Assembly (NCBI GenBank): GCA_963555995.3
Contig: OY821641.1
Span: forward strand, 3,008,001-3,072,000
Source of the DNA: Vicinamibacteria bacterium
Lineage (GTDB): Bacteria > Acidobacteriota > Vicinamibacteria > Marinacidobacterales > Marinacidobacteraceae
DNA: 64,000 nucleotides
Direction of reading: 5' to 3'
Part shown: positions 4,386 to 24,158 of the stretch, piece by piece
Position numbering within the stretch: position 1 is the first letter of the stretch
Layout of the letters: each line of letters opens with the position of its first letter
Notes under the pieces: generated by a model
What the model saw: the letters and a program-made list of their open reading frames with translations, nothing else
What the model was told of the DNA's origin: nothing
Databases searched by the model: none
Made by a program: the position numbers and the translations under genes

Positions 4386-6818
4386 ATGGTCTGCAGGAAT
4401 TGCGGTCGGCGAGTGGGAGGTGGCGCAGGGCCCTGCGTGTGGTGCGGAGCCGAGAGCGGCGCCGGCGGCCCACCGGACGGCAAACACGACGCCCGCATCG
4501 GCACCACCCTGGAGGGCAAGTACCGGCTCGACGCCCGGATCGGCGCCGGCGGCATGGGCGCCGTCTATCGCGCGACGAGGGTCACGATCGGAGATCGGGT
4601 CGCCGTGAAGATCCTGCACGCGGACCGGCTCCGGGACCCCGAGGCCCCGGAGAGGTTCCGGCGTGAGGCGCGGGCGGCAGCCAGGCTCAAACATGAGAAC
4701 GTCGTGACGATCCACGACTTGGGCGTGACAAACGACGGCACGCCCTACCTGGTGATGGAGCTCGTCGAAGGCGACTCCCTGCGGCATCTGATCGAGCGGG
4801 ATGGCCCGCTCCCGCCGTCGCTCGCGGCGGAGATCCTCGCGCAGGTCTGCTCCGCACTCGACGAGGCGCACGCTCAGGGGATCGTGCACCGGGACATCAA
4901 GCCCGACAACATCCTCGTGACGCGGCGACCGGCGGGGCTGCATGTGGAGGTGCTCGACTTCGGCATCGCACGGGTGGGCTACATGGCGCCGGCGGGGGAC
5001 CTGACGCAAGTGGGCCGGGTCCTCGGCACGCCGCACTACATGTCGCCGGAACAGTGTCTCGGAGAGGAACTCGACGGGAGGTCGGACCTCTACAGCATGG
5101 GTGTCGTTCTCTACGAGATGCTGTCGGGGACCGTGCCGTTCGATGCGACGACGGCGATGGGCATCGTGGTGCAGCACGTGAACGACGCGCCGCCCCCGCT
5201 GCATGAGCGGAAGCCGGACGTTCCGCCGGCGGTCGAGGCGGTCGTGGACGGGGCGCTCCGGAAACGGCGCGAGGACCGGCCGGCGAGCGCCGGTGCGCTG
5301 GCGACGCAACTGACGCGCGCCGTAGCGGACGCAGCCGGGACGCGGCCGCCGGCATCCGCCGGCGCGGGTACTCGACGGCCGACCGGCGGTCCGGCGCCCA
5401 CGGTGCAGATGGGGGCGGCGGGAACCGGGGGCCCCGGGGGAACCGGCGCGGCCGGCGGTGGCCGCCGGCGGCGGAGGGTCGGATTCTGGACGGGAGTGGC
5501 CGCCGCGGCGGCGGTGGCGACGACGGTGCTCGTGCTCGACGAGGGGTGGTTGCCGTGGCGCAGGGACACGGGACAGCCGAAACCCGCAACGGCCGGCGCC
5601 GATGCGTCTCCGGTCAAGCCGGAGGTTCCGGCGAGCGCGCCGGAAGCAAGCGTTGCGGCGGACGCGGCCGCACCCCGGATGGAGGAAGGAACTGCATCGC
5701 GGACGCCGGAGCCGGAACGACCGCCGGGCCGGGCGCCGGCCAGCGCCGTTCCTCCCGCCGCCCCGGCCCCGGCGCCCGCCGCCGCGAATCCGCCGGCCCG
5801 CAGGCCGGCGTCGGCGTCGGCGCGCGTGGGCAGCCTGACGATTCGGGCGCTGCCGGGGAGCGCCGTGCAACTGGACGGCGTGGACACCGGAACGACGGAC
5901 GACTCGGGCATCCTCGGCGTGACCGGGATTCCGGCCGGCCGGCACCTGCTGATGGCGCGGAAGGAGGGCTACGCCGACGCGCAGGCCATCGTGAGCGTGG
6001 TCGCGGACCAGTCGGACGTGGTGGAACTGTCGCTGGTCGCGTTGCCGGGGGCGCTCACGGTCACCGCCAACACGCCGGACGTGACGGTGCAGATCGAGGG
6101 CGTCGGTGAATACCGCCTGCCGGTGACGGGACTGGAGGTCCCCGCCGGACTGCAGCGGGTGGCGGCGAGCAAGCCGGGGTTCCTGCCCGTGGAGGACGCC
6201 GTCGAAGTCCGGAGCGGGAAGGCGGCGACGCTGGAACTCGTGCTGGAACGCGTTCCCCCGGAGGTGGCCCTGCAGGAGGCCCAGGGTCTCTTCAACGTGC
6301 GGCAGTATCGGGACGCGGCCCGCGCCGCCGAGGCGGTCGTGACCGAATACGGCGATTCCGGCGAGGCGTATCTCCTGCTCGGAAAGTCAATGCACGAACT
6401 GGGAAGATTCGACGACAGCGCGAACTTCCTGGGACGGGCCATCGAGCTCGGTCAGGCGGTCGAACTGCCCGCAAAGCACCGCCATGGCGGGTTGGGGCTT
6501 CGAGACGGTTTCTGCGAAGGCGTGATCGCCGTGAGCCGGAGCGTGGTCACCTTCCGGTCAGCGGCGGGACTCGACCACAGCTTCGTCACCACCCCGGACC
6601 GGATCCGCGCGGTAAGCCTCCGGGATGACCGGATCGCCATGAGGATCGCGGTCCTCGAAGCCAACCGGGAGCGGGAGCGCAACTTCGACTTCATCCATCC
6701 GGACACGGTGCAACGGGCGGCGGACGACCGGGGGTTGCTGACCGAGCTCTCCTGCCGGCGCTGCGATGCGTCGTTGACGGTGCTCCTCGCGCTGCTGCAA
6801 GAGGCCCGCGGGTTCTGA
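4386..6818 (+). CDS. Hanks-type Ser/Thr kinase: N-terminal Cys4 ribbon, TM, PEGA repeats, TPR-like segment, C-terminal beta domain
   Basis: GAGGMG, VAVK, HRDIKPDN, DFG and GTPHYMSPE are intact. CRNC..CVWC at the N-terminus, a hydrophobic span, and PEGA-like GRHLLMARKEGY repeats. Confidence 0.92.
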   Translation: MVCRNCGRRVGGGAGPCVWCGAESGAGGPPDGKHDARIGTTLEGKYRLDARIGAGGMGAVYRATRVTIGDRVAVKILHADRLRDPEAPERFRREARAAARLKHENVVTIHDLGVTNDGTPYLVMELVEGDSLRHLIERDGPLPPSLAAEILAQVCSALDEAHAQGIVHRDIKPDNILVTRRPAGLHVEVLDFGIARVGYMAPAGDLTQVGRVLGTPHYMSPEQCLGEELDGRSDLYSMGVVLYEMLSGTVPFDATTAMGIVVQHVNDAPPPLHERKPDVPPAVEAVVDGALRKRREDRPASAGALATQLTRAVADAAGTRPPASAGAGTRRPTGGPAPTVQMGAAGTGGPGGTGAAGGGRRRRRVGFWTGVAAAAAVATTVLVLDEGWLPWRRDTGQPKPATAGADASPVKPEVPASAPEASVAADAAAPRMEEGTASRTPEPERPPGRAPASAVPPAAPAPAPAAANPPARRPASASARVGSLTIRALPGSAVQLDGVDTGTTDDSGILGVTGIPAGRHLLMARKEGYADAQAIVSVVADQSDVVELSLVALPGALTVTANTPDVTVQIEGVGEYRLPVTGLEVPAGLQRVAASKPGFLPVEDAVEVRSGKAATLELVLERVPPEVALQEAQGLFNVRQYRDAARAAEAVVTEYGDSGEAYLLLGKSMHELGRFDDSANFLGRAIELGQAVELPAKHRHGGLGLRDGFCEGVIAVSRSVVTFRSAAGLDHSFVTTPDRIRAVSLRDDRIAMRIAVLEANRERERNFDFIHPDTVQRAADDRGLLTELSCRRCDASLTVLLALLQEARGF

Positions 6819-6881
6819 CGAGCACGGACGCCGGCGTCGCGGACGGCGTGGTGGACGACGCTCCGTCCTGAGTGACCCTAG

Positions 6882-7060
6882 CAGCCTGTGGATAAAGTGA
6901 CGTGAGCACCGAGAAGGCCGAGGCGCCCGGCTGACAAGGCGCGTGAGGGAGGAATACCGAGTGTATTCCGACCGAAACGCAACGCAGAGCGCCTCGTAGA
7001 GGCGCGGTTCAGGCGGGATGCTTCGGCGTCCGAATGCCGCGTGACTTTGTCCACAGGCTG
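6882..7060 (+). mobile_element. 179-bp MITE, copy 1 (flanked by CTAG)
   Basis: Terminal inverted repeats CAGCCTGTGGATAAAGT...ACTTTGTCCACAGGCTG, with CTAG at 6878-6881 and 7061-7064. Confidence 0.85.
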
Positions 7061-7083
7061 CTAGCCCTCGGGCTGACTCGCTG

Positions 7084-7659
7084 CTACCAGGAGCCGAACG
7101 ACGGGCCGAGACCGCCGAAAAACCCGGACAAGCCCAGAACGATCGCGGGCACCACCGCCGCGATCAGCACGATCAGCACCGCCTTGTCCGTCGTGCAACC
7201 GGACATGTCCTTGATGGCGAATACGTGCAGAACCAAACAGTAAATGCCCCCGACGAAGCCGCCCAGCAACGGCACGATCCCGAAGACCAGGGGTGCGGCA
7301 GCGAACATCTGTGCCCGAACCCAATCCGGGTAGGACGGCAGGCCGTAGGCATCCGCTTCACCGAGGGCTCGCCCTGTCAGGAACCTGCAGACGCACGCGT
7401 GAAAGACCACCGACACCAGCCCAACCAACGGATATCTCACACGGAACGTTGCGACCAGGGTGCCGAGGCTGCCTGCCAGCGCGAACCCGATCAGAAACAC
7501 GAGCAAACTCTGCCGGGTCTCGGGAAAGTCCGCGATCGCGCGGAAGCTCCCAGGCTTGAGAGACATGACTGCCGTGACCCGCTCCAGCAATTTGCTACCG
7601 GGAGGAGCCGCCGGGATCTCTGTCGTGGGAGGATCCGGAAAGGGATTGCCAGTCGTCAT
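7084..7659 (-). CDS. Yip1-family-like membrane protein
   Basis: 191 aa with about 5 TM segments. Yip1-like pattern: PGSFRAIA...FAAAPLVFGIVPLLG...FAIKDMSGCTTDKAVLIVL. Confidence 0.65.
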   Translation of the reverse strand: MTTGNPFPDPPTTEIPAAPPGSKLLERVTAVMSLKPGSFRAIADFPETRQSLLVFLIGFALAGSLGTLVATFRVRYPLVGLVSVVFHACVCRFLTGRALGEADAYGLPSYPDWVRAQMFAAAPLVFGIVPLLGGFVGGIYCLVLHVFAIKDMSGCTTDKAVLIVLIAAVVPAIVLGLSGFFGGLGPSFGSW

Positions 7660-7757
7660 CAGTGACTACGGTAATGTTTGCCAGGCTCTCTTGCAAACAG
7701 TTTTGCTGTCCTCTGCCATACGGCGGATTTGAAAGAGCCATCGCTCCCTCACACTAG

Positions 7758-7936
7758 CAGCCTGTGGTGAAACCCCCGTGAGCGCCGAGAGCGGCGAGGC
7801 GCCTCGCTGACAAGGCGCGTGAGGGAGGAATACCGGGTGTATTCCGACCGAAACGCAACGCAGAGCGCCTCGCAGAGGCGTGGTTCAGCGAGGATGCGTC
7901 GCCGCTCGAACGCCGCGAGGGTTTTGCCACAGGCTG
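7758..7936 (+). mobile_element. 179-bp MITE, copy 2 (flanked by CTAG)
   Basis: CAGCCTGTGG...CCACAGGCTG ends, CTAG at 7754-7757 and 7937-7940, same interior as copy 1. Confidence 0.85.
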
Positions 7937-8074
7937 CTAGGATCTGCCCCCCGCTCCGAAGAACTGCCACCCGTCACTCGGGTTCACCACTGCGGCCGCT
8001 GAGGCATGCATCGCGCGTGCTTTCGCTGTCTCCGTCCCGTGGGAGGACCAACCCGCGGTCTCCGAGGGATTTAA

Positions 8075-8253
8075 CAGCCTGTGGTGAAACCCCCGTGAGC
8101 GCCGAGAGCGGTGAAGCGCCCCGCTGACAAGGCGCGTGAGGGAGGAATACCGAGTGTATTCCGACCGAAACGCAACGCCGAGCGCCGCACAGCGGCGCGG
8201 TTCAGCGGGGATGCATCAATGCTTGAACGCCACGGGGGTTTTGCCACAGGCTG
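8075..8253 (+). mobile_element. 179-bp MITE, copy 3 (flanked by TTAA)
   Basis: Same ends and interior. TTAA at 8071-8074 and 8254-8257; the right TTAA supplies the TAA stop of the adjacent minus-strand gene. Confidence 0.85.
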
Positions 8254-11199
8254 TTAACTCCTCGGCTGGAACGCAGCGGAATAGCAGGTTGTCTCCGTAC
8301 CGCGCGCGCTGACGATCACTGCATGCTCCGTTGGCTCTCGCTGGCCCAACTGCACGCTTACTTCCGGAAGCGGCGCTTCGCCAACTGCGATGATCTCGTC
8401 CCCGTGCAACAGTGCTATGGGCCCGATCGAAGCTCCCGCCCCCATCTCACTTCCACACCGACTCACCGGGCGCACGGAAACGAGGCCAGGGTGCACCACG
8501 TTCGTGTCTTCGGACCCAATCGTCCAAGCGTGAGCCTCTCCGCCAGCCAGGCAACGACAGCGCTCCTGCTCGTTCTGCAGGCGTCCGGCTGGAGTGACCC
8601 AATATGCTGCCACCTGCGCGAACGTGTCGCCCAGGATGTCCCCCCCTCCCCCAAGAGAGACGAGGTACTCACCAATCTGGGTGCCCACTGAAAGTCTCGC
8701 AATCATCCACGACCGGTACTCTCCGCTTCCTTCGACCTCCGGTGGGACTCGGCTCACTTGCTCCACGAAGAACTCTCCGCCAATGCGTTGGCTATCAGGG
8801 CCGGTCAAGCTCAGGATGAGCCGCTCGCGCGATCGAGCCGTCACCATGAGCGTGCCCTTCGCCATCCGGGAGGGCCGTTGTCCGGGCCTCCCGAAAGTCT
8901 CGTCGTCATCTCGGAGGATTCGCAGCGTGTGGCCATCCTGAATCATCCGCTCCATAGCGTCACCGGGGACTAGCTCCTCCGCCACCGTGTCCAGACGGAT
9001 CATGTACGGGATGTCGCCACTACGATCTGTCAAGTTGTGCTCTTGGGAGACCCTAACGATGTGGGTGGAATCGCGTTCAAGCCGTCGTTTCAGGAAATAC
9101 GCCCCGTCACCACTGTAGATCAGGTTCGCCAGGTGTGGCGGTTGTCCGCTTGAGAACACGAAGATCGATGGCACGAAACCGTCCACTTCCGAGATGAGGG
9201 TCATTCCTATCTCGCTATCCTGTGCACTTTTGAATTCCCAGAGCTGGCCTTCGATCGGAAGCTGGTTCGCCCTGTCGACCCCGCGGTCGAGAGACAAGGC
9301 GTTCGTGGACCTCAAATGGATGCCGTAGTTGCAGTCAGCACCAGCCTCTTGGCACTCCGGGTCCGCCCCGTTGAGACAGACGTCGTGATCGTTAGCAGTT
9401 ACCTGCACGAGGTGTTCTCCAATCCAATCCGACGGCCACACGAGTTCCACCGATCTCTCACCCGACGGACCGACGGCTGCGGCAAGCACATTGCCATCCG
9501 GTGACATCAATCGAATGCACGGAGTGAACTGACTCGCCGAAGCGACCAGCACTACGCCCACAGACAGGTGGTCGCTCTCGGACGCGTCGATGCTCCAGTA
9601 CTTCTTCTGCGCTAGCGAAGCCCTATGCAGGGTATTCGGGCGGAGAACCTCGGGGCGTCCTATTTCAGCCTCGATCCCATACGATCCCGGGGTCCCGGCG
9701 GTGATAAGAATCAGGGGCGCCCGGGTTTCCGTTTCATTGCCCTCCTGCTGCTGGCGGAGGTATGCGGCTTGGGTCAACGCGGGAGCGCCCGGATATGACG
9801 GCAGGTCATCGCCGTCCGGCGTATAGAGAGTGACTTGTGGATTGAAGCCCTCTCCTTCTGGAGTTATGTCGACATTGATGACCGGGCTGAGGGCGAGCTG
9901 GTCTTGATCGACCGGATTCAACTCCCATGCGTGCACCGTCTGCTGGTCATACTGGACGTTTCTCCTAGTCGTGAATTTCCCGGACGCAGAATCGAGATCC
10001 AAAGATGCCTGACGCAGTGCCTCGGCCGTGATGGCGGTGTCGCCGCTGCCACCACCTCGCGCTTGAACGACTGCCAAATACGTGGCGTCCGACGGAAGCG
10101 GCCGAGCGACCCTGGCCGCTGTTGAGTGGGTATCGCCACCGATGTCGTCGTCACTTGCCAGCCATGCACTGCTCGCAGCCGGACCTAGGCGGAAGAGCCC
10201 CAAGAAGGGGTCGAAGTCGTCCGACGCGGCAGTGACGCTCACTACGTCTGACTCTTGGCCGGCAAATGTCCAGGCGACCAGAGGTATGCGAGAGTCGCCA
10301 TGCCACCAAGGCGGTTCCAGATGCGGGACTTCCTCCAAAGCGGCGTGGGAAGGAATGCCGTGGGTCAAGGTTTGAACATCGAAGACATAAGCCGTGAGTT
10401 CATAAGCACCAGCCGACGCACTGAAGTCCTTCCCCGAGACATGGATGGCATAGGAGCCGGGTGTGAGCGCGGGCAGCACCATCCACGGATTCTTGCCCGG
10501 TCCGGCATCGGCGTCCTGAGCCAATGCACTCTCTCCCGACGTCAGGACCAAGTCTGGGTCGAAATCATCAGAATGCGCGGCCAGACTGATGAACTGGCCC
10601 TCCCGCATCTCGTCTTCCCCCACGTCCAGGACCCAGTTGGCCGTCCCTGATTCTTCCGGAGTGCAGTCGCTTTCCGAGGAATCGCAAGACTCGAGAACTC
10701 CCAGAACGGGGGCATTGAGTTGAAGGGCGAGGCTCCCAAGTGGCCGCATTCTTAGCGCTGTCCGTTCCACGACCGGTTTGCCCTCACAGTCGGTTGGATG
10801 CCAAGCCAGCCGATATGTATCGTCCCGCGGAAGCCAATGCACGAGTCGGTGGTGCAGTCCGGGTTTGGTTATCGCGTGTCTCTCTTCGTCATCAAAGGAA
10901 AGCTGGCATTCCTCCCGATCAGTGGCCGCACTGATGATCACTGCATCCCCCGCTCGCCCCTCGAAAGTGAAGAGCCCTGACTGCTCTTCGGTGACCGCCT
11001 CACCGCGAGAGACCCAGCCAGAAACCAGTTCCCACGTACCGTGCAGGTCGGTCAGAGTGATCAGGACCGGAATGGGGACCAAGTAAGGGGCAAACCGGCG
11101 CAGGCCGCGTCCACCCTTTGTCAGCTTGCCGGCGAAGCGTTTCCAACTGATCATCGAGAAGCGCCTCGAGGAGCCGCCTTCCTTACTGGAACTGACCAT
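8254..11199 (-). CDS. Membrane-anchored protein with multiple pre-peptidase C-terminal (PPC)-like beta domains
   Basis: 981 aa with an N-terminal hydrophobic span. Repeated motifs S.DFDP.L.L...A.D.D.G...LP..G.Y. Visibly more A/T-rich than the flanks. Confidence 0.7.
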   Translation of the reverse strand: MVSSSKEGGSSRRFSMISWKRFAGKLTKGGRGLRRFAPYLVPIPVLITLTDLHGTWELVSGWVSRGEAVTEEQSGLFTFEGRAGDAVIISAATDREECQLSFDDEERHAITKPGLHHRLVHWLPRDDTYRLAWHPTDCEGKPVVERTALRMRPLGSLALQLNAPVLGVLESCDSSESDCTPEESGTANWVLDVGEDEMREGQFISLAAHSDDFDPDLVLTSGESALAQDADAGPGKNPWMVLPALTPGSYAIHVSGKDFSASAGAYELTAYVFDVQTLTHGIPSHAALEEVPHLEPPWWHGDSRIPLVAWTFAGQESDVVSVTAASDDFDPFLGLFRLGPAASSAWLASDDDIGGDTHSTAARVARPLPSDATYLAVVQARGGGSGDTAITAEALRQASLDLDSASGKFTTRRNVQYDQQTVHAWELNPVDQDQLALSPVINVDITPEGEGFNPQVTLYTPDGDDLPSYPGAPALTQAAYLRQQQEGNETETRAPLILITAGTPGSYGIEAEIGRPEVLRPNTLHRASLAQKKYWSIDASESDHLSVGVVLVASASQFTPCIRLMSPDGNVLAAAVGPSGERSVELVWPSDWIGEHLVQVTANDHDVCLNGADPECQEAGADCNYGIHLRSTNALSLDRGVDRANQLPIEGQLWEFKSAQDSEIGMTLISEVDGFVPSIFVFSSGQPPHLANLIYSGDGAYFLKRRLERDSTHIVRVSQEHNLTDRSGDIPYMIRLDTVAEELVPGDAMERMIQDGHTLRILRDDDETFGRPGQRPSRMAKGTLMVTARSRERLILSLTGPDSQRIGGEFFVEQVSRVPPEVEGSGEYRSWMIARLSVGTQIGEYLVSLGGGGDILGDTFAQVAAYWVTPAGRLQNEQERCRCLAGGEAHAWTIGSEDTNVVHPGLVSVRPVSRCGSEMGAGASIGPIALLHGDEIIAVGEAPLPEVSVQLGQREPTEHAVIVSARGTETTCYSAAFQPRS

Positions 11200-11559: not shown

Positions 11560-12540
11560 CTACAAGCTGTCCAACCAGCCGACTGTGGTCCCCGTCTCCT
11601 CGGGTGGCAGGTCGCTGCCGCAATTTGCGCATCCGCCCCTCCTGTTCCAATGCCTCCCCGTCGCCGTCGCGCCGCAACTCTGGCACTTCACTATGTGCCT
11701 GCCAGAACTCCCCGAGGTGAAGCTGTCCAACCAGCCGACTGTGGTCCCCGTCTCCTCGGGTGGCAGGTCGCTGCCGCAATTTGCGCATCCGCCCCTCCTG
11801 TTCCAATGCCTCCCCGTCGCCGTCGCGCCGCAACTCTGACACTTCACTATGTGCCTGCCGGAACTCCCCGAGGTGAAGCTGTCCAACCAGCCGACTGTGG
11901 TCCCCGTCGCCTCGGGTAGCAGGTCGCTGCCGCAATTTGCGCATCCGCCCCTCCTGTTCCAATGCCTCGACGTCGCCGTCGCGCCGCAACTCTGGCACTT
12001 CATTATGTGCCTGCCGGCACCGCGCCAGAGGTAGATCAAACGAGGGAGCACTACGAAACCCACCACGAAGAACAGGAAGAATTCTCCGCTACTAGAGCTG
12101 AAAACACCGCCATACTCAGCGATGGCCATGATCAACCAGGAGTTGACCCAGAACAACACCCAAGCGACCCACAGATGACTCACGATGATGTGCCGGTTGG
12201 CACGCTCCGACGAAAGATACCGAACATAGTACCAACGAGAAAAGACTGTAAATCCCCCCGCGACGAGCAGGGCATCCACCCAAATTGCCAAGCTGAAAAG
12301 ACCGCGCTCGATGACGCTCAACAGGCAAAAGCTGATGACGAACCCGACCCACAGGACCCACAGCTTGCTCTTGAAGCCGAGCTTCGAGAACTTGGACCAA
12401 GCCTCGGACCCGTCGGCCTTGATCTCCGCCGAGGTCTCCCCTGCGTGTTTGGCGATCTTGGACCTCACCTCGGCCCAGCGCTGCGACGACGCCGTCGGAT
12501 TTCGCCTCTTGGCTTTACGAGGAACTTCCGATTCATTCAT
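11560..12540 (-). CDS. Membrane protein with three tandem C-terminal CxxC-CxxC zinc-ribbon-like repeats
   Basis: About 4 TM segments followed by 3 x (KCQSCGATAT.RHWNRRGGCANCGSDL). GAAGGAAG precedes the ATG. The N-terminal part is homologous to 24369-24905. Confidence 0.75.
   Translation of the reverse strand: MNESEVPRKAKRRNPTASSQRWAEVRSKIAKHAGETSAEIKADGSEAWSKFSKLGFKSKLWVLWVGFVISFCLLSVIERGLFSLAIWVDALLVAGGFTVFSRWYYVRYLSSERANRHIIVSHLWVAWVLFWVNSWLIMAIAEYGGVFSSSSGEFFLFFVVGFVVLPRLIYLWRGAGRHIMKCQSCGATATSRHWNRRGGCANCGSDLLPEATGTTVGWLDSFTSGSSGRHIVKCQSCGATATGRHWNRRGGCANCGSDLPPEETGTTVGWLDSFTSGSSGRHIVKCQSCGATATGRHWNRRGGCANCGSDLPPEETGTTVGWLDSL
11564..12017. repeat. 156-bp tandem repeat, ~2.9 copies (coding)
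   Basis: AAGCTGTCCAACCAGCC recurs at 11564, 11720 and 11876; the units are nearly identical. Confidence 0.95.
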
Positions 12541-12763
12541 TGTGTGCTTCCTTCAATCGCAAGCAAGGTAAATGACAGGACGGTACCGCCGCATTTCCGG
12601 CGCCGGCCCGAAGCATTCCGCCCGAGGTCGGCGTCAGCGCGCTCGTGTACCGCCTGTACCGTCCTTCCGAATGTGGGGCGGCCCTCCAGCCGGCGGTGGA
12701 ACCCGCGCGACCGCGGAAACGCCCGCCGGGAGAACCGGGTCGCGTGTGACCTGCCACAGCCAG

Positions 12764-14770
12764 TCAGAACCCGCGGGCCTTTTGCAGCAGCGCGACGAGC
12801 ACCGTCAACGACGCGTCGCAGCGCCGGCAGTAGAGCTCGGTCAACAACCCCGATTCGTCCGCCGACCGCTGCACCGTGTCCGGATGGATGAAATCGAAGT
12901 TGCGCTCCCGCTCCCGATTGCCTTCGAGGACCGCGATCTTCATTGCGATCCGATCATCCCGGAGGCGGACTTCCCTGATCCGGTCCGGGGTAGTGACGAA
13001 GCTGTGGTCGAGTCCCTGCGCAGACCGGTAGGTGACCACGCTTCGGCTCACGGCGATCACGCCCTCACAGAAACCGGCTCGAAGCCCCAAACCGCCATGC
13101 CGGTGCTTCGCGGGCAGCTCGACCGCCTGGCCGAGCTCGATGGCCCGTCCCAGGAAATTTGCGCTGTCGTCGAGTCTTCCCAGCTCGTGCACCGACTTTC
13201 CGAGCAGGAGATACGCCTCGCCGGAATCGCCATATTCGGTCACGACCACGCCGGCGGCGCGGGCCGCGTCCCGATACTGCCGCACGTCGAAGAGACCTTG
13301 CGCCTCCCGCAGGGCCACCTCCACGGGAACGCGTTCCAGCGCGAGTTCCAGCGTCGCCGGTTCTCCGGCACGGACTTCGACGGCGTCCTCGACGGACAGG
13401 AACCCCGGCTTGCTCGCCGCCACCCGTCGCAATCCGGCGGGGACCTCCAGTCCGGTCACCGGCAGGCGGTATTCGCCGACGCCCTCGATCCGCACCGTCA
13501 CGTCCGGGACGTTGGCGGTGACCGTGAGCGCCCCGCGCAACGCGACCAGCGACAGTTCCACCACTTCCGACTGGCCCGCGACCACGCTCACGGTGGCCTG
13601 AGCGTCGGCGTAGCCCTCCTTCCGCGCCACCAGCAGGTGCCGGCCGGCCTGGATCCCCGGCAGGCCGAGGATGCCGGAGTCGTCCGTAGTTCCGGCGTCC
13701 ACGCCGTCCAGTTGCACGGCGCTCCCCGGCAGCGCCCGAATCGTCAAGCTGCCCTCACGGGCCGACGCCGGCGCCGGCTTGCGGGCAGGCGGATTCGATA
13801 CGGCGGGCGCCGTGGCCAGTGGGGCGGGTTCGGGAGCGGTCGGTCCGCGCACCGTCTGGGTCGGCGCGGGAGGGGCAGGATCAGGCGCGGGAGGGGCAGG
13901 ATCAGGCGCGGGAGGGGCAGGATCAGGCGCGGGAGGGGCAGGATCAGGCGCTGGAGCGTCGGGAGCAGGAGCCGCGGCGGAATCGGGAGCCACCGAGACG
14001 CTCAGTGCATAGTCGCCGGTTGCGGTCCCCTCAAAGCCATCTACGGCAAGGAAGTAGGTGCCGGCGGACACTCGCTGCGAAATCCTGAAGTTGCCGCCCG
14101 AACCGCCGTCATTGTCTGTGGCTTCCACTCCGTTCCCGCGAAGTACACCCACGGTGTCCGTACTTCCGGAGGTCTCGAGCGTCACGGTGGACATGTCGGG
14201 AACCTCGACGATGAAACAGTCCCGCTCGTTCGGCCGATCCAGTCGACCGGCTGTGGAGGAACCGGCCTGCACGAGGGTCTCGCTTCCCTGCCCGCACGGG
14301 TGATCGTTGGCCATCTGCGGGCCCAAAGCCTGGTCGCCGGAAAAACAGCTCCGCACGATCCAGACCCCGAGCAACACCGTCGCCGCGAGGGCGCTCCTGC
14401 CGCGCCACCTGCGAGGCCGCGTACCGCCGGCGTCCGGCGCCCACCGCTCGCGCTCTTCACGAGCCCGCCGCTCCTCCTCCGCCCTGGCCGCGCCACGTTC
14501 TTCCTGACGGCACTTCTCGATCAGCGCATCGAACTTGCTGCGGCTCTCCTCCGTGCGGAAGTACTTCCTGAGCTTGCCGGCAAGGGTCTTCCGGTCGTCA
14601 GCCCGAGCCTTCCTGCTCTTCTTGTAAACATCGCCGCACCGGTTCCAGAGGTCGTCCTTCGGGCAACCCCTCGTGGCGCCGAGAAACGAATAGTGATCCT
14701 CCTCGCCGAGAGCACGAAGTTCCCGGTAGATCCGCTCCACCTGGAGTCTCGTGTTCTCACCGCCGGACAT
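12764..14770 (-). CDS. J-like domain (no HPD) - TM - PPC - Pro-rich linker - PEGA - TPR-like protein
   Basis: Start MSGGENTR follows GAGGAAG. DHYSFLG...SRSKFD J-like helices, PPC motif DTVGVL...DNDGGSGGNFRI, and a C-terminal 1,032 bp shared with the kinase. Confidence 0.8.
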   Translation of the reverse strand: MSGGENTRLQVERIYRELRALGEEDHYSFLGATRGCPKDDLWNRCGDVYKKSRKARADDRKTLAGKLRKYFRTEESRSKFDALIEKCRQEERGAARAEEERRAREERERWAPDAGGTRPRRWRGRSALAATVLLGVWIVRSCFSGDQALGPQMANDHPCGQGSETLVQAGSSTAGRLDRPNERDCFIVEVPDMSTVTLETSGSTDTVGVLRGNGVEATDNDGGSGGNFRISQRVSAGTYFLAVDGFEGTATGDYALSVSVAPDSAAAPAPDAPAPDPAPPAPDPAPPAPDPAPPAPDPAPPAPTQTVRGPTAPEPAPLATAPAVSNPPARKPAPASAREGSLTIRALPGSAVQLDGVDAGTTDDSGILGLPGIQAGRHLLVARKEGYADAQATVSVVAGQSEVVELSLVALRGALTVTANVPDVTVRIEGVGEYRLPVTGLEVPAGLRRVAASKPGFLSVEDAVEVRAGEPATLELALERVPVEVALREAQGLFDVRQYRDAARAAGVVVTEYGDSGEAYLLLGKSVHELGRLDDSANFLGRAIELGQAVELPAKHRHGGLGLRAGFCEGVIAVSRSVVTYRSAQGLDHSFVTTPDRIREVRLRDDRIAMKIAVLEGNRERERNFDFIHPDTVQRSADESGLLTELYCRRCDASLTVLVALLQKARGF
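13863..13951. repeat. 21-bp tandem repeat x4 encoding an (APDPAPP)n linker
   Basis: GGCGCGGGAGGGGCAGGATCA occurs 4 times; the paralog at ~23030 lacks the expansion. Confidence 0.95.
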
Positions 14771-14799
14771 GGCTTCCTCAGATTTGCGGGAACTTCCTT

Positions 14800-14938
14800 C
14801 CCCCGTCAGCCGCGGCTGGTTCACGGCATGGCTCGGTCAGATCGTCCAACTCGTTTCGGCCTTCTTCGGTGACGAGGCGCTGCCGGCTCGTCCCCGCAAA
14901 GTTCATCCGGGCGTCGTCCTTCTGCTTCATCCTCTCCA
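14800..14938 (-). pseudogene. 3' remnant of the vWA-TM-J-like gene
   Basis: RMKQKDDARMNFAGTSRQRLVTEEGRNELDDL matches the C-terminus of the ORF ending at 22174. Confidence 0.75.
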
Positions 14939-14987
14939 GTTCGCTTCCAGATCGCTGTCGTGTCACCAGGGGTTCGCGCCGACCGGC

Positions 14988-18444: not shown

Positions 18445-19308
18445 TCACTTCGGCCTCTCGAATCGGTACACGGCGACCTTGGCCGTCTCCATGACTTGCC
18501 CGTTCCACACGAAGCCGAGCTGGAGGCACTCGTGGACGGTCCGGTCCTGATCCTTCTCGTGCGTCGGCCTCACGCTCACGATCGTCTGCATGCGGGCATC
18601 GAACGGTTCGCCGGGCTCCGGACGATGGGGATCGAGACCGAAGTTCTCTAGCAGAACCTCCATGTCCTCCTGGAAGTTCGCCAGGAGATCGAGCGCCCGC
18701 TCGGGGGTGAGTTCCTCAGGCTTCCTGCTCCAGGCGGCGGCCTGCTTCCCCATGTCGCGCTGAAGACTCAGCACGGCGCGGACCAACGGTCGAACGGCCT
18801 TCCCGAGGAGGTCGCGCTTGAACTCCTCGTTTTCCTTGTGGAGGGTGTCAATCGTCTGCTGTTTGGTCGCGTCGTAACGCAGCTTGGCCTCGAACTCGTT
18901 GAGGATCCTGCCGAGCAGCGCTTCCATCGAGACGAGACGCTCATTGAGTCGCTCTTGGGCAGCGTCGCCATTCGTCGCCTCGCTCCCGTCGGACGTGGCC
19001 GACCCGGCGGCCGGGACGGAGCGCTGCGCGCGAGCGCCGCCCGTATCGGGGGCGGTTGGCGGACATGTGCTCTCGGCAGGCTTTTCGGGTTGGTCAGGGC
19101 CGGCTCCGGTTGCCGGGCCGCCGCCATCCCCGGCGGCGTCGCCGGCCCCCGCTGGAACAGGCGTCTCGCCCGGGGCATCGAGCTCGGCGGCGGAGTTCTC
19201 AGGCGCAGAATGAGGCAACGTTTCGATTGCCGGCGGTTGTTCTGCTCCGGCGGAGGCCGGACCCATGGCCGGGGTATCGTTCCGTCGCCGGTTCAACCAA
19301 CCCATCAC
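18445..19308 (-). CDS. GrpE-like nucleotide exchange factor with a long disordered N-terminus
   Basis: Coiled coil followed by GEPFDARMQ...VHECLQLGFVWNGQVMETAKVAV (GrpE beta-head pattern); directly upstream of the Hsp70 genes. Confidence 0.8.
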   Translation of the reverse strand: MMGWLNRRRNDTPAMGPASAGAEQPPAIETLPHSAPENSAAELDAPGETPVPAGAGDAAGDGGGPATGAGPDQPEKPAESTCPPTAPDTGGARAQRSVPAAGSATSDGSEATNGDAAQERLNERLVSMEALLGRILNEFEAKLRYDATKQQTIDTLHKENEEFKRDLLGKAVRPLVRAVLSLQRDMGKQAAAWSRKPEELTPERALDLLANFQEDMEVLLENFGLDPHRPEPGEPFDARMQTIVSVRPTHEKDQDRTVHECLQLGFVWNGQVMETAKVAVYRFERPK

Positions 19309-19610: not shown

Positions 19611-19648
19611 CTAACTGGCTGTGGCCAAACCCAGGTGAGCGCCGAGAC
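19611..19648 (+). mobile_element. Degenerate left end of the 179-bp MITE
   Basis: CTAA-CTGGCTGTGGCCAAACCCAGGTGAGCGCCGAGA resembles the MITE left end. Confidence 0.5.
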
Positions 19649-19710
19649 CCCCACCGGGAGAAATGCCCATGATCGGGACTTTCCGCACAACCCGCCGGGC
19701 ATGAAAATGG

Positions 19711-19750
19711 CTGGAGCGCCGATCTTCAGATCTGAAGACCGGCGCTTCAG
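19711..19750. repeat. Collapsed REP-like palindrome
   Basis: CTGGAGCGCCGATCTTCAGA|TCTGAAGACCGGCGCTTCAG, the same motif family as 36029-36204. Confidence 0.65.
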
Positions 19751-19774
19751 GCTGGGACTGCCATCAGGACGGCC

Positions 19775-20227
19775 AGCGGCTTGCCAAGACACGCTGCGGT
19801 TCTAACTGTCCACCTTCGCCATGATCCTGTTCCGGGGGCTGCAGGAGGCGCTGCGCAACACCCGGCTGGCCGTGGCCGGCGCAGAACCGATCCGGCTCCG
19901 CCTGCTGAAGATCGGAGTTCTGGTCCGGATATCGGTGCGGCGCGTCCGCCTCGCCATGTCCTCCGCCTGCCCCGACCAGGACTGTTCCGCCTCGCCTGCG
20001 AACGCCTGAACCGCACCTCAGGCCCGCCACACGGCCGCCCCCCCGAGAGGCGGCGCCCTGTGCCCAAAGGTGCTCGTCACCCCGGATGAGCGAGCCCAGC
20101 CCCCCCAGCGGATACCGCATCCGACCCGACGCCTACCTCCGCACTCGTGCCAAACGGTGCCGCCCGCTCCCCACGCCTCCCGAAACCTCCAATTCCGCCG
20201 TCCCGCCAGCAGTATGAGAAGTCCGGG
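19775..20227 (+). mobile_element. IS1380-family remnant (transposase C-terminus and right end)
   Basis: IRLRLLKIGVLVRISVRRVRLAMSSACP is typical of IS1380 transposase C-termini. The segment ends in TGAGAAGTCCGGG followed by TTAG. Confidence 0.7.
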
Positions 20228-20289
20228 TTAGAGAGCCCTCCCACGAGCGGCCGGACAGTTCGGGGCGCGGTTCTTCGGCGACCGCTGGG

Positions 20290-20520
20290 TGTCAATGGGC
20301 TCCGAAAATGTCCCACTTTTGGGTTTCTGGCGGGCCGGGAGTTGAGTAACGGGGCTGATGGGGGGAGTTTTGACCGGTCGGCAGCCGCGGACGGAGTGAA
20401 CGTAGGGGGCCGAGCGAACGGAGCTCCGCGGCTGCCGACCGAGTCTCACCTTGATTGTCGCTGGCGTCTCACCCTGATTGACGCGCCACAGGTTCCAAGC
20501 TGTCCGCCACTTTTGGTGAC
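20290..20520. mobile_element. Possible IS21-family end remnants
   Basis: TGTCAATGGGCTCCGAAAATGTCCCACTTTTGG and a second CCACTTTTGG box resemble IS21 terminal repeats. No transposase is present. Confidence 0.35.
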
Positions 20521-20696
20521 CAGCGGGGTGCGCAGGAGGACCGATCATGGGGGTTTCTCCCGGTGGGGGTTCCAAGCCGACGGGGAGTTCAGCCGGAAGA
20601 CCCGGAACCTCGCGGCGTTCAAGGTGGAGCGGGCCTGGGCGTCGGTGCCGGCGCCAGCCCGCTGCCGGGACGTCACGCAGCAGTGGCTCCCCGACG

Positions 20697-20786
20697 CTAT
20701 CCCGACCGGACCTGACTGAGCAGCGACAACAGCGAATCCCCCGTCAGCGAGTCCACCTCGTCCAGCAGCAGCACCAGCGGACGCGG
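20697..20786 (-). pseudogene. AAA-type ATPase fragment (Walker B region)
   Basis: [29 protein letters not shown], then a stop. Confidence 0.5.
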
Positions 20787-20952
20787 ACGGCTGCGGCGGT
20801 GGCCTATGGACTGCTGGAGACGGGCGGCGACGAGACGATCCTGGTCTATGACCTCGGCGGCGGCACGTTCGACATCACCGTGCTCGACATCAAGGCGGGC
20901 TCCATCGCGGTCGTGTGCACCGGTGGGGATCACAATCTGGGCGGCAGGAACT
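20787..20952 (+). pseudogene. 166-bp inverted copy of the Hsp70-B interior
   Basis: Matches the reverse complement of 15998-16163 with about 5 mismatches by eye ([29 protein letters not shown]...). Confidence 0.9.
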
Positions 20953-22174
20953 CACCTCCTCGGACCGCGTGGCCATTGTGGACTTCGACCACGTGGCGAG
21001 GGTTCACTTGCCGCTCACCTCGCTTGCCGACGAACGGGCGCGGTCCCGGGTCGAATCCGCAATTGACGAGGTGGACAGTGACGGCGGCACCGATCTCGGG
21101 GCAGGGCTCGCCGCCAGCTTCGCCGAGTTGCAGCGGGCGTCCGCCAGCGAGGGGCGCGATCGGCATGTGATCTTCCTCACCGACGGTGTAGGGCAATACT
21201 CACCAGAGGTGCTCGAAGCCGGAATCGCTGCGAAAGCAACCGTTCATACGGTGGGTCTCGGCGATGGAGTGGATGCGGCTCTGCTCACGGCGATCGCCAC
21301 CGCTACCGGAGCGTCGTACTACGCGGTGAGCGATGCCTCCGATCTGGTGGACGTCTTCGAGAGCGTCTTCGACCAGCAGTTGGCCATGAACGCGGTCGCG
21401 GCGGGCGGCGAGCGGGGAGAACTCCTGACGTCGGGCTGGCTGCTGCTGGTGGTGCGCACCCTGAGTTGGGGGGTCATGGGTCTGCTCATCGGCATGGGGC
21501 AGGGGTTGGCGTACAACACCCGGGAGGACTTCCGGGCCTGCGCCTTTGGAGGGCTCGCCGGCGGGCTGGCCGGTGGCGCGCTGTTCAACCCGGTCAGCCA
21601 ACTTGCCGTTCTGGGCTCGGGCCTCTCGGCACGAGCGGTCGCGGACGTGATCGTGGGCGCGACCATCGGTGGCTCGATGAGGATTGCGCAGACCACGCTG
21701 GCCGAGTCCGACAACCCGAAGACCACGATGCTCACGATTCTGCCGGAGCCCCCTCGGGATGCCGGATTGAGGGCTGACGGATCCGGAAACACGAGGCTCG
21801 AAGACCGGGGCGCGAGCCATCTGGGGCTACGGGATTTCCTCCGTCACGGATTCGGGAAGAGCCGAGGGAGTTCGGCCGCGCCCGGAGCAGCCGTGTCCGG
21901 CGCCGGGACCACCGGACGAAAGGTGGAGGAAATCTTCCGGGGGCTGACGGCCCTGGGCGAGCGGGATCACTATTCCTTCCTCGGCGCGGATCGGAGTTGG
22001 ACGCTGGCGCAGCTCCAGAAGACGTGCCGCGAGATCCATTTGGCGCGGATGAAGCAGAAGGACGACGCCCGGATGAAACTTGCCGGGAAGATCAGGCAGC
22101 GTCTTGTCACCGAAAAAGACCGCAAGGAATTGGACGAACTGATCGAGAAGTACCATGAAACCAGTCGCGACTGA
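20953..22174 (+). pseudogene. 5'-truncated vWA domain - TM helices - J-like domain protein
   Basis: [17 protein letters not shown] and VHTVGLG are vWA motifs, but the N-terminal DxSxS is absent. Gly-rich TM helices and a C-terminal DHYSFLG domain. Joined out of frame to the Hsp70 fragment. Confidence 0.75.
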
Positions 22175-22209
22175 CGGGGGAAGGGAGTTCCCGCAAATCT
22201 GAGGAAGCC

Positions 22210-24158
22210 ATGTCCGGCGGCGAGAACACGAGACTCCAGGTAGAGCGGATCTACCGGGAACTTCGTGCGCTGGGCGAGGAGGATCACTATTCGTTTCTCG
22301 GCGCCGCGAGGGGTTGCCCGAAGGACGACCTCTGGAACCGGTGCGGGGAGGTTTACAAAGAGAGCAGGAAGGCTCGGGCTGACGACCGGAAGACCCTTGC
22401 CGGCAAGCTCCGGAAGTACTTCCGCACCGAGGAGAGCCGCAGCAAGTTCGATGCGCTGATCGAGAAGTGCCGTCAGGAAGAACACGCCGCGGCGGCACGT
22501 GGAGCAGCGGACGCCCGACGGGCCAGGGCGGAGGAGGAGCGGCGGGCTTGGGATGCCGGCGGTACGCGGCTTGGCAGGTGGCGCCGCCGGAGCGCCCTCG
22601 CGACGACGGTGTTGCTCGGGGTCTGGGTCGTGCGGAGCTGCCTTTCCGGCGACCAGGCTTCGGGCCCGCAGATGGCCAACGATCACCCGTGCGGTCAGGC
22701 GGGCGGGACCCTCGTGCAGGCCGGCTCCTCCACACCCGGTCGCCTGGACCAGCCCAACGAGCAGGACTGTTTCGTCGTCGAGGTTCCCGGCGGGTCCACC
22801 TTGACGCTCGAGACCTCCGGAACTACGGACACCATGGGTGTACTTCGCGGAAACGGAGTGGAAGCCAGAGACGATGACGGCGGTTCGGACGCCAACTTCA
22901 GGATTTCGGAGCGCGTGTCCGCTGGCACGGATTTCCTTGCCGTGGTCGGCTACGACGGAACAGCAACGGGCGACTACGCGCTGAGCGTCCAGGTGGCTCC
23001 CGATTCCGCCGCGGCTCCTGCTCCCGTCGCTCCCGCGCCTGATTCTGCCCGTCCCGCGCCGACCCCGACGGTGCGCCGACCGACCGCTCCCGAACCCGCC
23101 CCAGCGTCCCCGGCGCCCACCGTCTCGAATCCGCCCGCCAGCAGGCCGGCGCCGGCGTCGGCCCGTGAGGGCAGCTTGACGATTCGGGCGCTGCCGGGGA
23201 GCGCCGTGCAACTGGACGGCGTGGACGCCGGAACGACGGACGACTCGGGCATCCTCGGCCTGCCGGGGCTCCAGGCCGGCCGGCACCTGCTGGTGGTCCG
23301 GAAGGAGGGCTACGCCGACGCCCAGGCCACCGTAAGCGTGGTCGCGGGCCAGTCGGAGGTGGTGGAACTGTCGCCGGTCGCGTTGTCGGGGGCGCTCACG
23401 GTCACCGCCAATGTCCCGGACGTGACGGTGCAGATCGAGGGCGTCGGCGAGTACAGCCTGCCGGTGACGGGACTGGAGGTCCTGGCCGGACTGCGGCGGG
23501 TGGCGGCGAGCAGACCGGGATTCCTCCCCGTCGAGGACGCCGTCGAAGTCCGTGGCGGAGAAGCGGCGACACTGGAACTCGTGCTGGAACGCGTCCCCGT
23601 GGAGGTGGCCCTGCGGGAGGCCCAGAGTCTCTTCAACGTGCGGCAGTATCGGGACGCGGCCCGCGCCGCCGAGGCGGTCGTGACCGAAAACGGCGATGCC
23701 GGAGAGGCGTATCTCCTGCTCGGGAAATCGGTGTACGAGTTGGGAAGACTCGAGGACAGCGCGAACTTTCTGGGACGGGCCATCGAGCTCGGCCAGGCAG
23801 TCGAGCTGCCCGCGAAGCACCGGCATGGCGGTTTGGGGCTTCGAGCCGGTTTCTGTGAGGGCGTGATCGCCGTGAGCCGGAGCGTGGTCACCTACCGGTC
23901 AGCACAGGGACTGGACCACAGCTTCGTCACCACCCCGGACCGGATCCGTGCGGTCACCTTCCGGGATGACCGGATCGCCATGAGGATCGCGGTCCTCGAA
24001 GGCAATCGGGAGCGGGAGCGCAACTTCGACTTCATCCATCCGGACGCCGTGCAGCGGTCGGCGGACGAACGGGGTTGAGGACCGAGCTCTACTGCCGGCG
24101 CTGCGATGCGTCGTTGACGGTGCTCCTCGCGCTGCTGCAAAGCGCCCGCGGGTTCTGA
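22210..24158 (+). CDS. J-like - TM - PPC - PEGA - TPR-like paralog with a 1-nt frameshift near the 3' end (stop at 24078)
   Basis: Inverted paralog of 12764-14770. CGGGGTTGAGGACC here versus CGGGGGTTGCTGACC in the kinase; the homologous tail continues to TGA at 24158. Confidence 0.8.

Follow-up and report, generated by a model that had tools for sequence, protein, structure and literature searches.

A module with a predicted PH-like tip shared by a receptor-type kinase and HPD-less J-like proteins in a Vicinamibacteria bacterium

Why should the same stretch of coding sequence end both a Ser/Thr kinase and membrane proteins with a J-like N-terminus? The question arises in a window of 64,000 nucleotides (contig OY821641.1, positions 3,008,001 to 3,072,000), the whole stretch of DNA analyzed here, in which a repeat occupies 5787-6818 (1032 bp), 12764-13795 (1032 bp), and 23128-24158 (1031 bp; Table 1). 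A preliminary description had reported these copies as closely alike at the DNA level and proposed that recent domain shuffling lets one sensor drive either phosphorylation or Hsp70 recruitment; it called for structure prediction of the terminal part and a survey of N-terminal partners, and regarded assembly chimeras, or a module on the kinase's side of the membrane, as fatal. Positions and likeness hold: the copies differ pairwise in 93, 95, and 80 of 1032 columns (91.0, 90.8, and 92.2% identity), and tblastn searches with its PEGA, TPR, and terminal parts give exactly three copies in the 3.8-Mb genome. As described, each carries two PEGA stretches and a TPR (two PEGA and TPR_16 per protein by Pfam) as well as KHRH, C, DH, and CRRC, with CRRC alone lying beyond a 1-bp deletion near 24070 in copy 3.

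The copies are not assembly chimeras, as short-read contigs run across the junction in copy 1 and in copy 3. The kinase-module junction is crossed by contigs from run X1 (4948-5857, one other letter) and run X5 (5141-5857), and an X5 contig (21507-23198) runs through the vWA, J-like, and PPC parts into the start of module copy 3. For copy 2, an X3 contig (11973-12923) joins the 3' end to neighboring sequence, and no contig among the matches listed spans the 5' junction. Runs X1, X3, and X4 come from a single study (the source sample may be part of it) and X5 from a second; both fusions are also encoded in other assemblies. The frameshift in copy 3 is real, an 85-nt X1 contig (24016-24100) being identical to the window; contigs with an extra G at this point occur in three of four runs and show other differences too, possibly representing other strains or copies. 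The deletion brings a stop at 24078, with loss of the CxxC and the last helix; P0192 is an intact orthologue of this gene.

The idea of three independent fusions has to be reduced to two. The operon was duplicated in inverted orientation, with reciprocal deletions in its two copies, and the third module copy is a frameshifted duplicate of the J-like-module gene (12658-14938 vs. 22041-24264, 86.5% identity); the downstream membrane genes are also alike (12024-12504 vs. 24384-24870, 73% of nucleotides). As the likeness of copies 2 and 3 extends over the entire gene and its downstream neighbor, their common start is no independent junction. The Pro-rich linker that the preliminary description placed before a common NPPA junction is present, but homology between kinase and J-like genes begins ~33 bp before that point, at 5754 within the Pro/Ala linker, and continues to the stop codon. 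Both operon copies are damaged, leaving no intact vWA gene in this genome; an X5 contig joins 14939 via ~600 bp to 20951, and most of the 981-aa gene lacks coverage in that run. The kinase, intact J-like, intact vWA, Hsp70a, and ABC proteins persist in two other assemblies, where all five apparently lie together (on 3,719,154- and 178,780-nt contigs, judging by equal contig size), and the kinase 5' remnant preceding grpE suggests an old linkage of kinase and operon. Gene conversion among the copies, also raised earlier, left no detectable tracts (runs test p = 0.63); dS is ~0.18 and dN/dS 0.29-0.37. Given the absence of tracts and a protein divergence of 10-14% between kinase and J-like modules, recency alone may account for their likeness. 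As for the triple repeat, most of it comes down to duplication and decay.

Table 1. Features of the island, in window positions
Feature	Position	Strand	Remarks
FHA-FHA-ABC ATPase-ABC2 membrane protein, 812 aa	1860..4298	+	Pfam FHA x2, ABC_tran, ABC2_membrane; directly upstream of kinase
Hanks-type Ser/Thr kinase P0002, 810 aa	4386..6818	+	Pkinase E 1.7e-48
Module copy 1	5787..6818	+	PEGA-PEGA from 5826, TPR helices from 6255, PH-like domain 6453-6815
Terminal PH-like domain of copy 1 (predicted)	6453..6815	+	AF2, VIA, conservation, co-loss
Tip residues of copy 1			H698 (6477), H700 (6483), C710 (6513), H731 (6576), R749 (6630), C790 (6753), C793 (6762)
Yip1-like membrane protein	7084..7659	-	Pfam Yip1 E 6e-6, below cut-off; between dispersed 188-bp repeats
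981-aa protein, weak PPC similarity	8254..11199	-	PPC E 0.016; beta-rich
Membrane protein, three 156-bp tandem zinc-ribbon-like repeats	11560..12540	-	Last shared gene, operon copy A
J-like-PPC-module copy 2, P0009, 668 aa, intact	12764..14770	-	Likeliest start ATG 14770
Parts of P0009			J-like 14770-14495, marginal helix 14392-14336, PPC 14323-13988, Pro linker, module 13795-12764
3' remnant of vWA/J-like gene	14820..14942	-	tblastn 66% to vWA protein aa 363-403; rest deleted in copy A
Atypical Hsp70a, 544 aa	14988..16622	-	Variable substrate domain
Atypical Hsp70b, 542 aa	16716..18344	-	64% identical to Hsp70a, same losses
GrpE-like nucleotide exchange factor	18445..19308	-	Pfam GrpE E 2.4e-12
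Deleted second kinase paralogue, first 49 codons	19374..19523	-	77% nt to 4386-4535; 66 bp upstream of grpE, same strand
Internal Hsp70a fragment, 97% nt	20786..20952	+	Joined to truncated vWA gene; operon copy B starts here
5'-truncated membrane vWA protein ending in J-like unit (21893-22168)	20951..22174	+	Full length 565-571 aa elsewhere
J-like-helix-PPC-module copy 3	22210..24158	+	J-like 22210-22485, helix 22594-22650, PPC 22663-22998, module 23128-24158
Paralogue of 11560-12540 membrane gene, without zinc ribbons	24369..24905	+	73% nt

The PEGA-PEGA-TPR-terminal module defines a family of >130 proteins, and the survey of homologues reveals many N-terminal partners, including kinases and HPD-less J-like units, the latter (two families) on 11 further module proteins of 139 scanned. 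The preliminary description had missed both this wide family with its many partners and the PH-like identity of the terminal domain. In the module tree, the window-type J-like modules fall inside three nested starred clades otherwise composed of kinases; because they nest among kinase modules, transfer probably ran from kinase to J-like protein, and the module was likely copied onto a J-like membrane protein. Tree and dS together uphold recent domain shuffling. A single group of J-like modules is rejected (AU p = 0.0017; the grouping was chosen with the tree already in view), and the sequences indicate that the combination of J-like unit and module arose more than once, in other branches. One could read all this as neutral shuffling in a decaying mobile island, in which low-complexity Pro/Ala linkers let the module hop and no coupling of kinase and chaperone is implied. 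The island is full of deletions, gene remnants, and repeats besides the frameshift, the module occurs in just two of 55 genomes of the order, partner types are mixed on the tree (12 label changes over 34 rows), and conversion tracts are missing, all as such a reading would have it. The dN/dS values argue against it, as do the intact J-like fusions in the two other assemblies, the repeated origin of the combination, and the retention of all seven conserved tip residues in intact copies, and we consider it unlikely.

Most homologues carry a signal peptide or membrane helix upstream of the module, which is therefore likely to be exported. A hydropathy scan of the 96 homologues that have 150 aa or more ahead of the module found a hydrophobic segment there in 79 (in 43, a lone N-terminal signal or anchor), and the protein carrying the G004 copy has a lipoprotein-type signal (lipobox read by eye). 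In the kinase, which has all six catalytic motifs intact, the catalytic domain is followed by one membrane helix (aa 365-383, nt 5478-5534, hydropathy 1.82, after RRRRR), the Pro/Ala linker, and module copy 1, so that the module is predicted to lie beyond the membrane and not on the kinase's side. For the window-type J-like proteins the helix is marginal, with a hydropathy of 1.5-1.65, and P0008 is missed at a stricter threshold.

The terminal domain gave a confident AF2 model (pLDDT 96, 106-sequence alignment) with seven strands, an inserted hairpin, and a C-terminal helix (DSSP); this predicted sandwich can be superposed on solved PH domains. All four non-TPR matches among the 50 listed VIA rows cover the domain, and three are PH-containing chains, two of them SIN1 (Z 12.5, rmsd 3.5, 104 aligned; and 7lc1_D, Z 11.9, rmsd 1.9, 92 aligned) and one neurofibromin (Z 11.3); the fourth is a Leishmania domain without a name (Z 10.8), the Z of ~12 for PH rows being level with that of TPR rows. 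Foldseek with the terminal domain returned nothing at E <= 0.001 (best 1.7e-3). Among profiles, PH_TFIIH of the PH clan matches 11 of 106 members (best E 7.8e-5, whole-protein queries), and the window domain matches no PH-clan profile at E 0.5. The bPH families (PF08000 and allies) gave no match for P0006 at E 0.5 and do not appear among the 25 commonest families listed for relatives (75 rarer ones lie beyond these), and the tip family has no Pfam or NCBIfam model. The module tip is predicted to have a PH-like fold.

That KHRH, C, DH, and CRRC form a single metal site, as first suggested, finds no support in conservation, which separates two groups. Across 134 rows, H698 is kept in 121, H700 in 119, C710 in 113, and H731 in 94, and C790 and C793 in 133 each. 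All 13 rows without H698 also lack H700 and C710, whereas all 21 rows without C710 keep both CxxC cysteines; of the 113 rows with the first three residues, 110 have His, Glu, or Asp at the fourth position. From this conservation and co-loss, the His-His-Cys-His cluster is likely a candidate metal or ligand site, its geometry being judged from strand register and from joint losses in related sequences, and the nearly invariant CxxC is likely a putative disulfide.

The proposed J-domain ancestry of the N-terminal unit is supported by transitive profile homology: the window unit aligns with family B (hhalign 96.3%, E 1.7e-9), and family B with DnaJ (63.6%, E 6.7e-5, 63 columns), so that homology over helices I-IV is reached only transitively, the direct comparison being weak (8-10%). 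Pfam DnaJ finds nothing in the window at E <= 1 (four matches elsewhere in the genome), and the best relative, P0055, scores E 0.0014 and 19.1 bits against a cut-off of 27.8; with a low-depth model, J-domains take four of the top six Foldseek rows, all non-significant (E 2-4.5). The HPD motif is absent from the three window units and from 10 of 10 family B/C proteins (first 160 aa checked). J-domain D35 contacts R167 of the Hsp70 and H33 contacts linker L391, and replacing the HPD His or Asp abolished stimulation in every tested system covered by PMC8215388. Hsp70a and Hsp70b both have Tyr at the DnaK R167 position, a linker replaced by a ~30-aa insert (described for Hsp70a, Hsp70b being the same), and no helical lid. 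With the HPD and the matching Arg, linker, and lid all gone, canonical Hsp70 activation is unlikely, and Hsp70 recruitment in that sense, as originally envisaged, is not supported. This matched loss makes the pair a natural test case for J/Hsp70 function in the absence of the canonical handshake.

Our preferred explanation, to which we give a little less than an even chance, is that the repeat is an exported kinase ectodomain copied to an HPD-less J-like protein of the operon, so that kinase and adaptor share a cue. The PH tip, projecting on a PEGA-TPR stalk, would bind a ligand in the envelope or outside the cell; its His-His-Cys-His cluster would likely serve as metal or ligand site and the CxxC as disulfide. 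Clustered by the ligand, the kinase would become active and phosphorylate the adjacent FHA-ABC transporter, its likely substrate (95-98% identical copies of this protein occur in three other assemblies). The same cue would reach the J-like protein through its matching ectodomain, and this protein would act as a non-catalytic adaptor, tethering or regulating the lidless Hsp70s by a non-canonical contact and not by classical ATPase stimulation. A bolder version is doubtful: an exported, metal-armed PH domain as a portable sensing tip of Acidobacteriota, wired repeatedly to kinases and HPD-less J-like proteins, here in an immune-like receptor/co-receptor pair in which one cue would reach phosphorylation and a co-evolved, non-canonical J-like/Hsp70 pair, the J-like partner lacking HPD and the Hsp70 lacking R167, linker, and lid but having a diversifying substrate domain.

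That the island is a conflict system analogous to the Hsp70/GrpE theme of GAP1-N2 loci, its module detecting an invader or host molecule and Hsp70a capturing foreign proteins with its variable substrate domain, concerns biological role, can coexist with ectodomain sharing, and is in our view unlikely. Section 29 of PMC7159879 describes GAP1-N2 GTPase-centric conflict systems with an Hsp70/GrpE theme and a kinase/vWA theme, and the sole GTDB relatives of Hsp70a returned (three loci, 39% identity) adjoin GAP1-N2 loci in Amycolatopsis. Between strains, residues 406-490 of Hsp70a show 66-85% identity and the stretches on either side 94-98%. The distribution is patchy: none of 400 phylum genomes has an Hsp70a-like match at E <= 1e-75. 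However, the genome (93% complete) has no match to GAP1-N2 (PF20013; control positive in Corynebacterium) or DO-GTPase2 (PF19993), tblastn with the proteins of comparison locus L052 recovers only Hsp70s. PADLOC finds only generic kinase, FHA, and ABC domains (nine of 11 proteins have no match), and the island has no toxic effector. Pfam fn3 is not matched in 12 island proteins, although the 981-aa protein is beta-rich.

The J-like protein could also act as decoy or co-receptor, pairing with the kinase through its ectodomain or competing for ligand and so damping the signal, its HPD-less unit being inhibitory or a scaffold with no Hsp70 role; we regard this as rather improbable. The ectodomains are 86-90% identical in protein, HPD is missing from all J-like units examined, and ring formation is described for bacterial PF08000 PH domains (PMC2817789), as would suit such pairing, but the same J-like unit ends the operon's vWA protein, which carries no module, and the J-like gene sits in an Hsp70-GrpE operon. 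A functional J-domain able to stimulate ATP hydrolysis by Hsp70, with one sensor leading to phosphorylation or canonical Hsp70 activation, is very improbable in view of the missing motif, docking Arg, and linker, for all the homology chain to DnaJ and the Foldseek rows in its favor.

How, then, does ectodomain sharing by kinase and J-like adaptor compare with known systems? PH domains are known as intracellular modules, and an exported one with a conserved His/Cys cluster in >130 bacterial proteins would be a new type of sensor for receptor kinases, directly testable at 120 aa with a confident model. The tip has its predicted seven-strand sandwich and C-terminal helix in common with the SIN1 PH, FERM F3, neurofibromin PH-like, and bacterial PHb domains, and departs from them in its inserted hairpin, His/Cys cluster, and CxxC. 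The PHb domains of membrane proteins described in PMC2817789 are predicted to be intracellular, whereas the module tip is predicted to be exported, and the hydropathy scan of homologues places the family accordingly. The kinase follows the plan of PknB/Stk1-type receptors (cytoplasmic kinase, one membrane helix, outer sensor); their sensor is PASTA, for which Pfam gave no match here, and the window kinase instead has PEGA-PEGA-TPR-PH, which a non-kinase also carries (NF033483 matches the kinase part alone, 342 bits, cut-off 450). Pairs of a kinase and an FHA-ABC transporter are known from PknF-Rv1747, and the window likewise has an FHA-FHA-ABC gene adjoining the kinase gene. With the GAP1-N2 systems of PMC7159879 the island shares an Hsp70 pair, GrpE, a J-domain fusion, vWA, PEGA, and a zinc-ribbon-type kinase N-terminus, differing in that no GAP1, DO-GTPase, or FNIII protein was detected. 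Class C membrane J-proteins, such as E. coli DjlB/DjlC with HscC (PMC8215388), are also membrane-anchored, J-derived, and placed beside a specialized Hsp70; unlike them, the window unit lacks HPD and bears a large ectodomain, and where HscC, as PMC8215388 presents it, has no GrpE signature, the window pairs two lidless Hsp70s with a GrpE of their own.

The observation in the preliminary description, that one module recurs on proteins with different cytoplasmic parts, is confirmed, and its interpretation is partly supported. The module (two PEGA domains, TPR-type helices and a terminal domain predicted to be PH-like) is present in three copies exactly where it had been placed (see the table), with pairwise identities of 91.0, 90.8 and 92.2%, and the genome holds no further copy. 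Homology between the kinase gene and the J-like genes, whose DnaJ-derived N-terminal unit has no HPD motif, starts in the Pro/Ala linker (position 5754) and ends at the stop codon. Short-read contigs extend 70 nt past the junction in copies 1 and 3, which rules out an assembly chimera for these two, and another contig links the 3' end of copy 2 with the neighbor gene. Both fusions are also found in other assemblies (kinases P0190, P0191 and P0007; J-like proteins P0192 and P0008).

Features of the window and their positions
Feature	Position	Strand	Remarks
Module copy 1	5787-6818	+	on Ser/Thr kinase P0002
Module copy 2	12764-13795	-	on J-like protein P0009
Module copy 3	23128-24158	+	on frameshifted J-like gene
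Operon copy A		-	order: kinase remnant, grpE, hsp70b, hsp70a, vWA 3' remnant, J-like gene, membrane gene
Operon copy B		+	order: hsp70a fragment, truncated vWA, J-like gene, membrane gene
hsp70a	14988-16622	-	
Three 156-bp tandem repeats	11564-12020		97% identical; end of membrane protein
Membrane-protein paralogue	24369-24905		156-bp repeats missing
Island	1860-24905		
Flanking ~1,090-aa paralogues	1-1688; 25197-28487		secreted-type
188-bp element	6877-7064; 7751-7940; 8072-8265; 35676-35861		inverted ends (CTAGCAGCCTGTGGA)
Second dispersed repeat	24945-25150		
Transposase-like frame fragment	~19870-19990	+	between the two inverted operon copies

The three separate fusions originally envisaged reduce to two, as copies 2 and 3 sit on genes that are paralogous over their full length and lie in inverted copies of an Hsp70-GrpE-vWA-J-like operon. 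The intact operon is co-directional, because a short-read contig (set X5) runs from the end of hsp70a through ~600 bp into the vWA gene, and full-length vWA proteins occur in other assemblies (P0182, P0193). Copy 3 is the orthologue of the intact J-like protein P0192 (98.4% in the module), and the allele in copy 2 is more divergent (91%). The frameshift of copy 3, which removes the CxxC and the last helix, is matched by an identical short-read contig, ruling out a long-read homopolymer error as its cause. Between copies, dS is 0.17-0.19 and dN/dS 0.29-0.37. Gene conversion, for which a test had been suggested, left no tract in a runs test on 104 collapsed singleton sites (p = 0.63; three sequences, low power). 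Beyond one kinase-to-J-like transfer, ordinary duplication and decay account for the threefold repeat. The 156-bp tandem repeats in the window code for zinc-ribbon-like CxxC...CxxC units.

In a 47-row module tree, the modules of window-type J-like proteins lie inside three nested starred clades (98/92, 99/95 and 96/87) otherwise made up of kinases, and another tree agrees. Because J-like modules are nested among kinase modules, the sequences indicate that transfer ran from kinase to J-like protein, by new fusion or by overwriting of an older module. The nesting, together with the low dS between copies, bears out the proposal of recent domain shuffling. HPD-less J-like N-termini also occur on 11 other module proteins of 139 (six of one type, family B, and five of another, family C); a single clade of window-type and family B modules is rejected (p = 0.0017; the group was named after the tree was seen); and on 34 rows the seven partner labels undergo 12 changes, versus a shuffled mean of 20.8. 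Thus, partner swapping is a habit of the family, with some phylogenetic signal.

The family was collected with phmmer, using the TPR and terminal domain as query against 1.84 billion representatives (252 matches at E <= 0.001, 150 listed), and a terminal-domain profile matched 139 of the 167 stored proteins. No Pfam or NCBIfam model covers the terminal domain. N-terminal partners in the 69 proteins scanned include kinases and RDD, ankyrin, PG_binding_1, caspase-like and zinc-ribbon domains, and in many module proteins a signal peptide is the sole upstream feature. Pyrinomonadaceae are the source of one named member. Within the phylum, 15 of 401 genomes matched at E <= 1e-8; besides the host genome, only G261 and G074 gave strong matches confirmed by the domain profile, the other 12 being weak and mostly in the TPR range. 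A metagenome scan with the J-like protein P0009 found four loci, each matching the PPC region only. An unnamed N-terminal domain of ~75 aa, starting MP(E/D)Y, is common to module proteins P0019, P0027, P0032, P0037, P0041 and P0044, with no Pfam match over it in those scanned. In genome G004, a module (50% identity) sits on a lipoprotein-type N-terminus (L022:1385-3064, -) amid abundant insertion sequences, with no match to other island genes within ~19 kb on either side.

In an AlphaFold2 model (pLDDT 96), four TPR-type helices are followed by a seven-stranded domain that has an inserted hairpin and closes with a helix. PH and FERM domains head the Foldseek list, none at E <= 0.001, and VIA aligns the terminal domain to the SIN1 PH domain at Z 11.9-12.5 and to neurofibromin at 11.3. 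The PH_TFIIH profile matches 11 of 106 family members, and the top Atlas match, taken as a lead only, is "PH domain-containing protein" (0.90, 134 shared features). In a PDB sequence search with the same 106-member set (A2), the best 60 of 199 matches were all TPR proteins, and a homodimer prediction for the TPR-PH part with zinc scored 0.00, which speaks neither for nor against a dimer.

KHRH, C, DH and CRRC had been proposed to form a single metal site, a reading that is not supported, as the residues behave as two groups. Conservation across 134 rows (2 of 136 left out as partial; kinase numbering) is 121 for H698, 119 for H700, 113 for C710, 94 for H731 and 133 each for C790 and C793. H698, H700 and C710 are lost together, and the CxxC, whose Cys spacing ranges from 2 to 4, is kept through every loss of C710, although the rows are related to each other and co-loss counts are therefore overstated. 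In the model, strand 1 ends with H698 and H700 and strand 2 begins with C710, a hairpin position that could bring these residues together. Strand register and co-loss point to two distinct features, a putative His-His-Cys-(His/Glu/Asp) site and a putative disulfide.

Under the positive-inside rule, an arginine flank marks the cytoplasmic side of a membrane helix. Five arginines precede the kinase helix, which points to an N-in, C-out topology. Of 133 homologues, 37 have too little sequence before the module to be scored; among the other 96, 79 carry a hydrophobic segment there, in 43 as a lone N-terminal one. The membrane helix of window-type J-like proteins is marginal. As a passage of PMC2817789 predicts PHb domains of membrane proteins to be intracellular, an exported PH fold would be the unusual point. 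The literature searched, with most subscription journals outside its scope, holds no description of the terminal domain or locus. What seems new is an unnamed domain, probably exported, with a predicted PH fold and two His/Cys groups, repeatedly wired to kinases and HPD-less J-like proteins.

Functional roles of the module, J-like unit and Hsp70s are putative throughout. For the suggested recruitment of Hsp70, J-domain ancestry finds support via family B, but canonical activation does not. The J-like unit has neither a Pfam DnaJ match nor an HPD, its homologue search returned only three near-identical proteins, and fold searches with its model (pLDDT 76, five sequences) gave nothing significant. 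The unit shares homology with family B (hhalign 96.3%, E 1.7e-9). Family B can in turn be aligned over 63 columns (E 6.7e-5) with J-domains encoded in the host genome, and one of its proteins (P0055) has a sub-threshold DnaJ match. According to a passage of PMC8215388, HPD changes abolish stimulation, D35 binding R167 and H33 the linker. Aligned with the genome's DnaK, both operon Hsp70s (Hsp70a and Hsp70b) lack the lid, carry Tyr at the R167 position and have ~30 inserted residues where the hydrophobic linker would be. The canonical contact is missing on both sides, which would suit partners that bind in a non-canonical way as well as proteins that do not interact. The J-like unit also forms the end of the vWA protein (43% identity); in this membrane vWA family (P0182-P0189) C-termini vary, being J-like in the window, other short domains in P0185-P0188 and FHA in P0189. 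Residues 406-490 of Hsp70a, in the substrate-binding region, are 66-85% identical among three strains, with flanks at 94-98%, possibly through diversifying selection or paralogue recombination.

The host genome is 3.8 Mb in two contigs and 93% complete. Named proteins that cluster with its DnaK and DnaJ come from Acidobacteriota; one run containing half of the sampled words is labeled sponge metagenome. Two paralogous genes (82% nt), with more paralogues elsewhere in the genome, bracket the island, whose genes have GC3 of 0.68-0.90 versus 0.95-0.96 in the brackets. Because the module is present in 2 of 55 genomes of the order, and 400 sampled genomes of the phylum gave no Hsp70a-like match at E <= 1e-75, we infer that the region was acquired. 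The 188-bp element is MITE-like, with dozens of copies across the genome, sometimes in tandem. The frame fragment between the operon copies is a candidate C-terminus of an IS1380-type transposase. Rfam gave no matches within the window, and no RNA run was among the listed runs carrying its words.

Section 29 of PMC7159879 describes an Hsp70/GrpE/DnaJ theme and a kinase/vWA theme at GAP1-N2 loci. The island resembles these accessory themes without belonging to the GAP1-N2 conflict systems, since neither GAP1-N2 nor DO-GTPase2 was found in its genome. Three Hsp70a relatives in GTDB genomes (39%; L050-L052, Amycolatopsis) adjoin GAP1-N2 loci, and in L052 both GAP1-N2 and DO-GTPase2 are confirmed by Pfam. 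These relatives sit on the opposite strand to the GAP1-N2 loci; those of L050 and L052 carry a comparable insert behind the nucleotide-binding domain, and their R167 position is not Arg. PADLOC matches on the island are limited to generic domains. PknF-Rv1747 is a pairing of a kinase with an FHA-ABC protein, and the kinase and FHA-ABC pairing of the window matches it.
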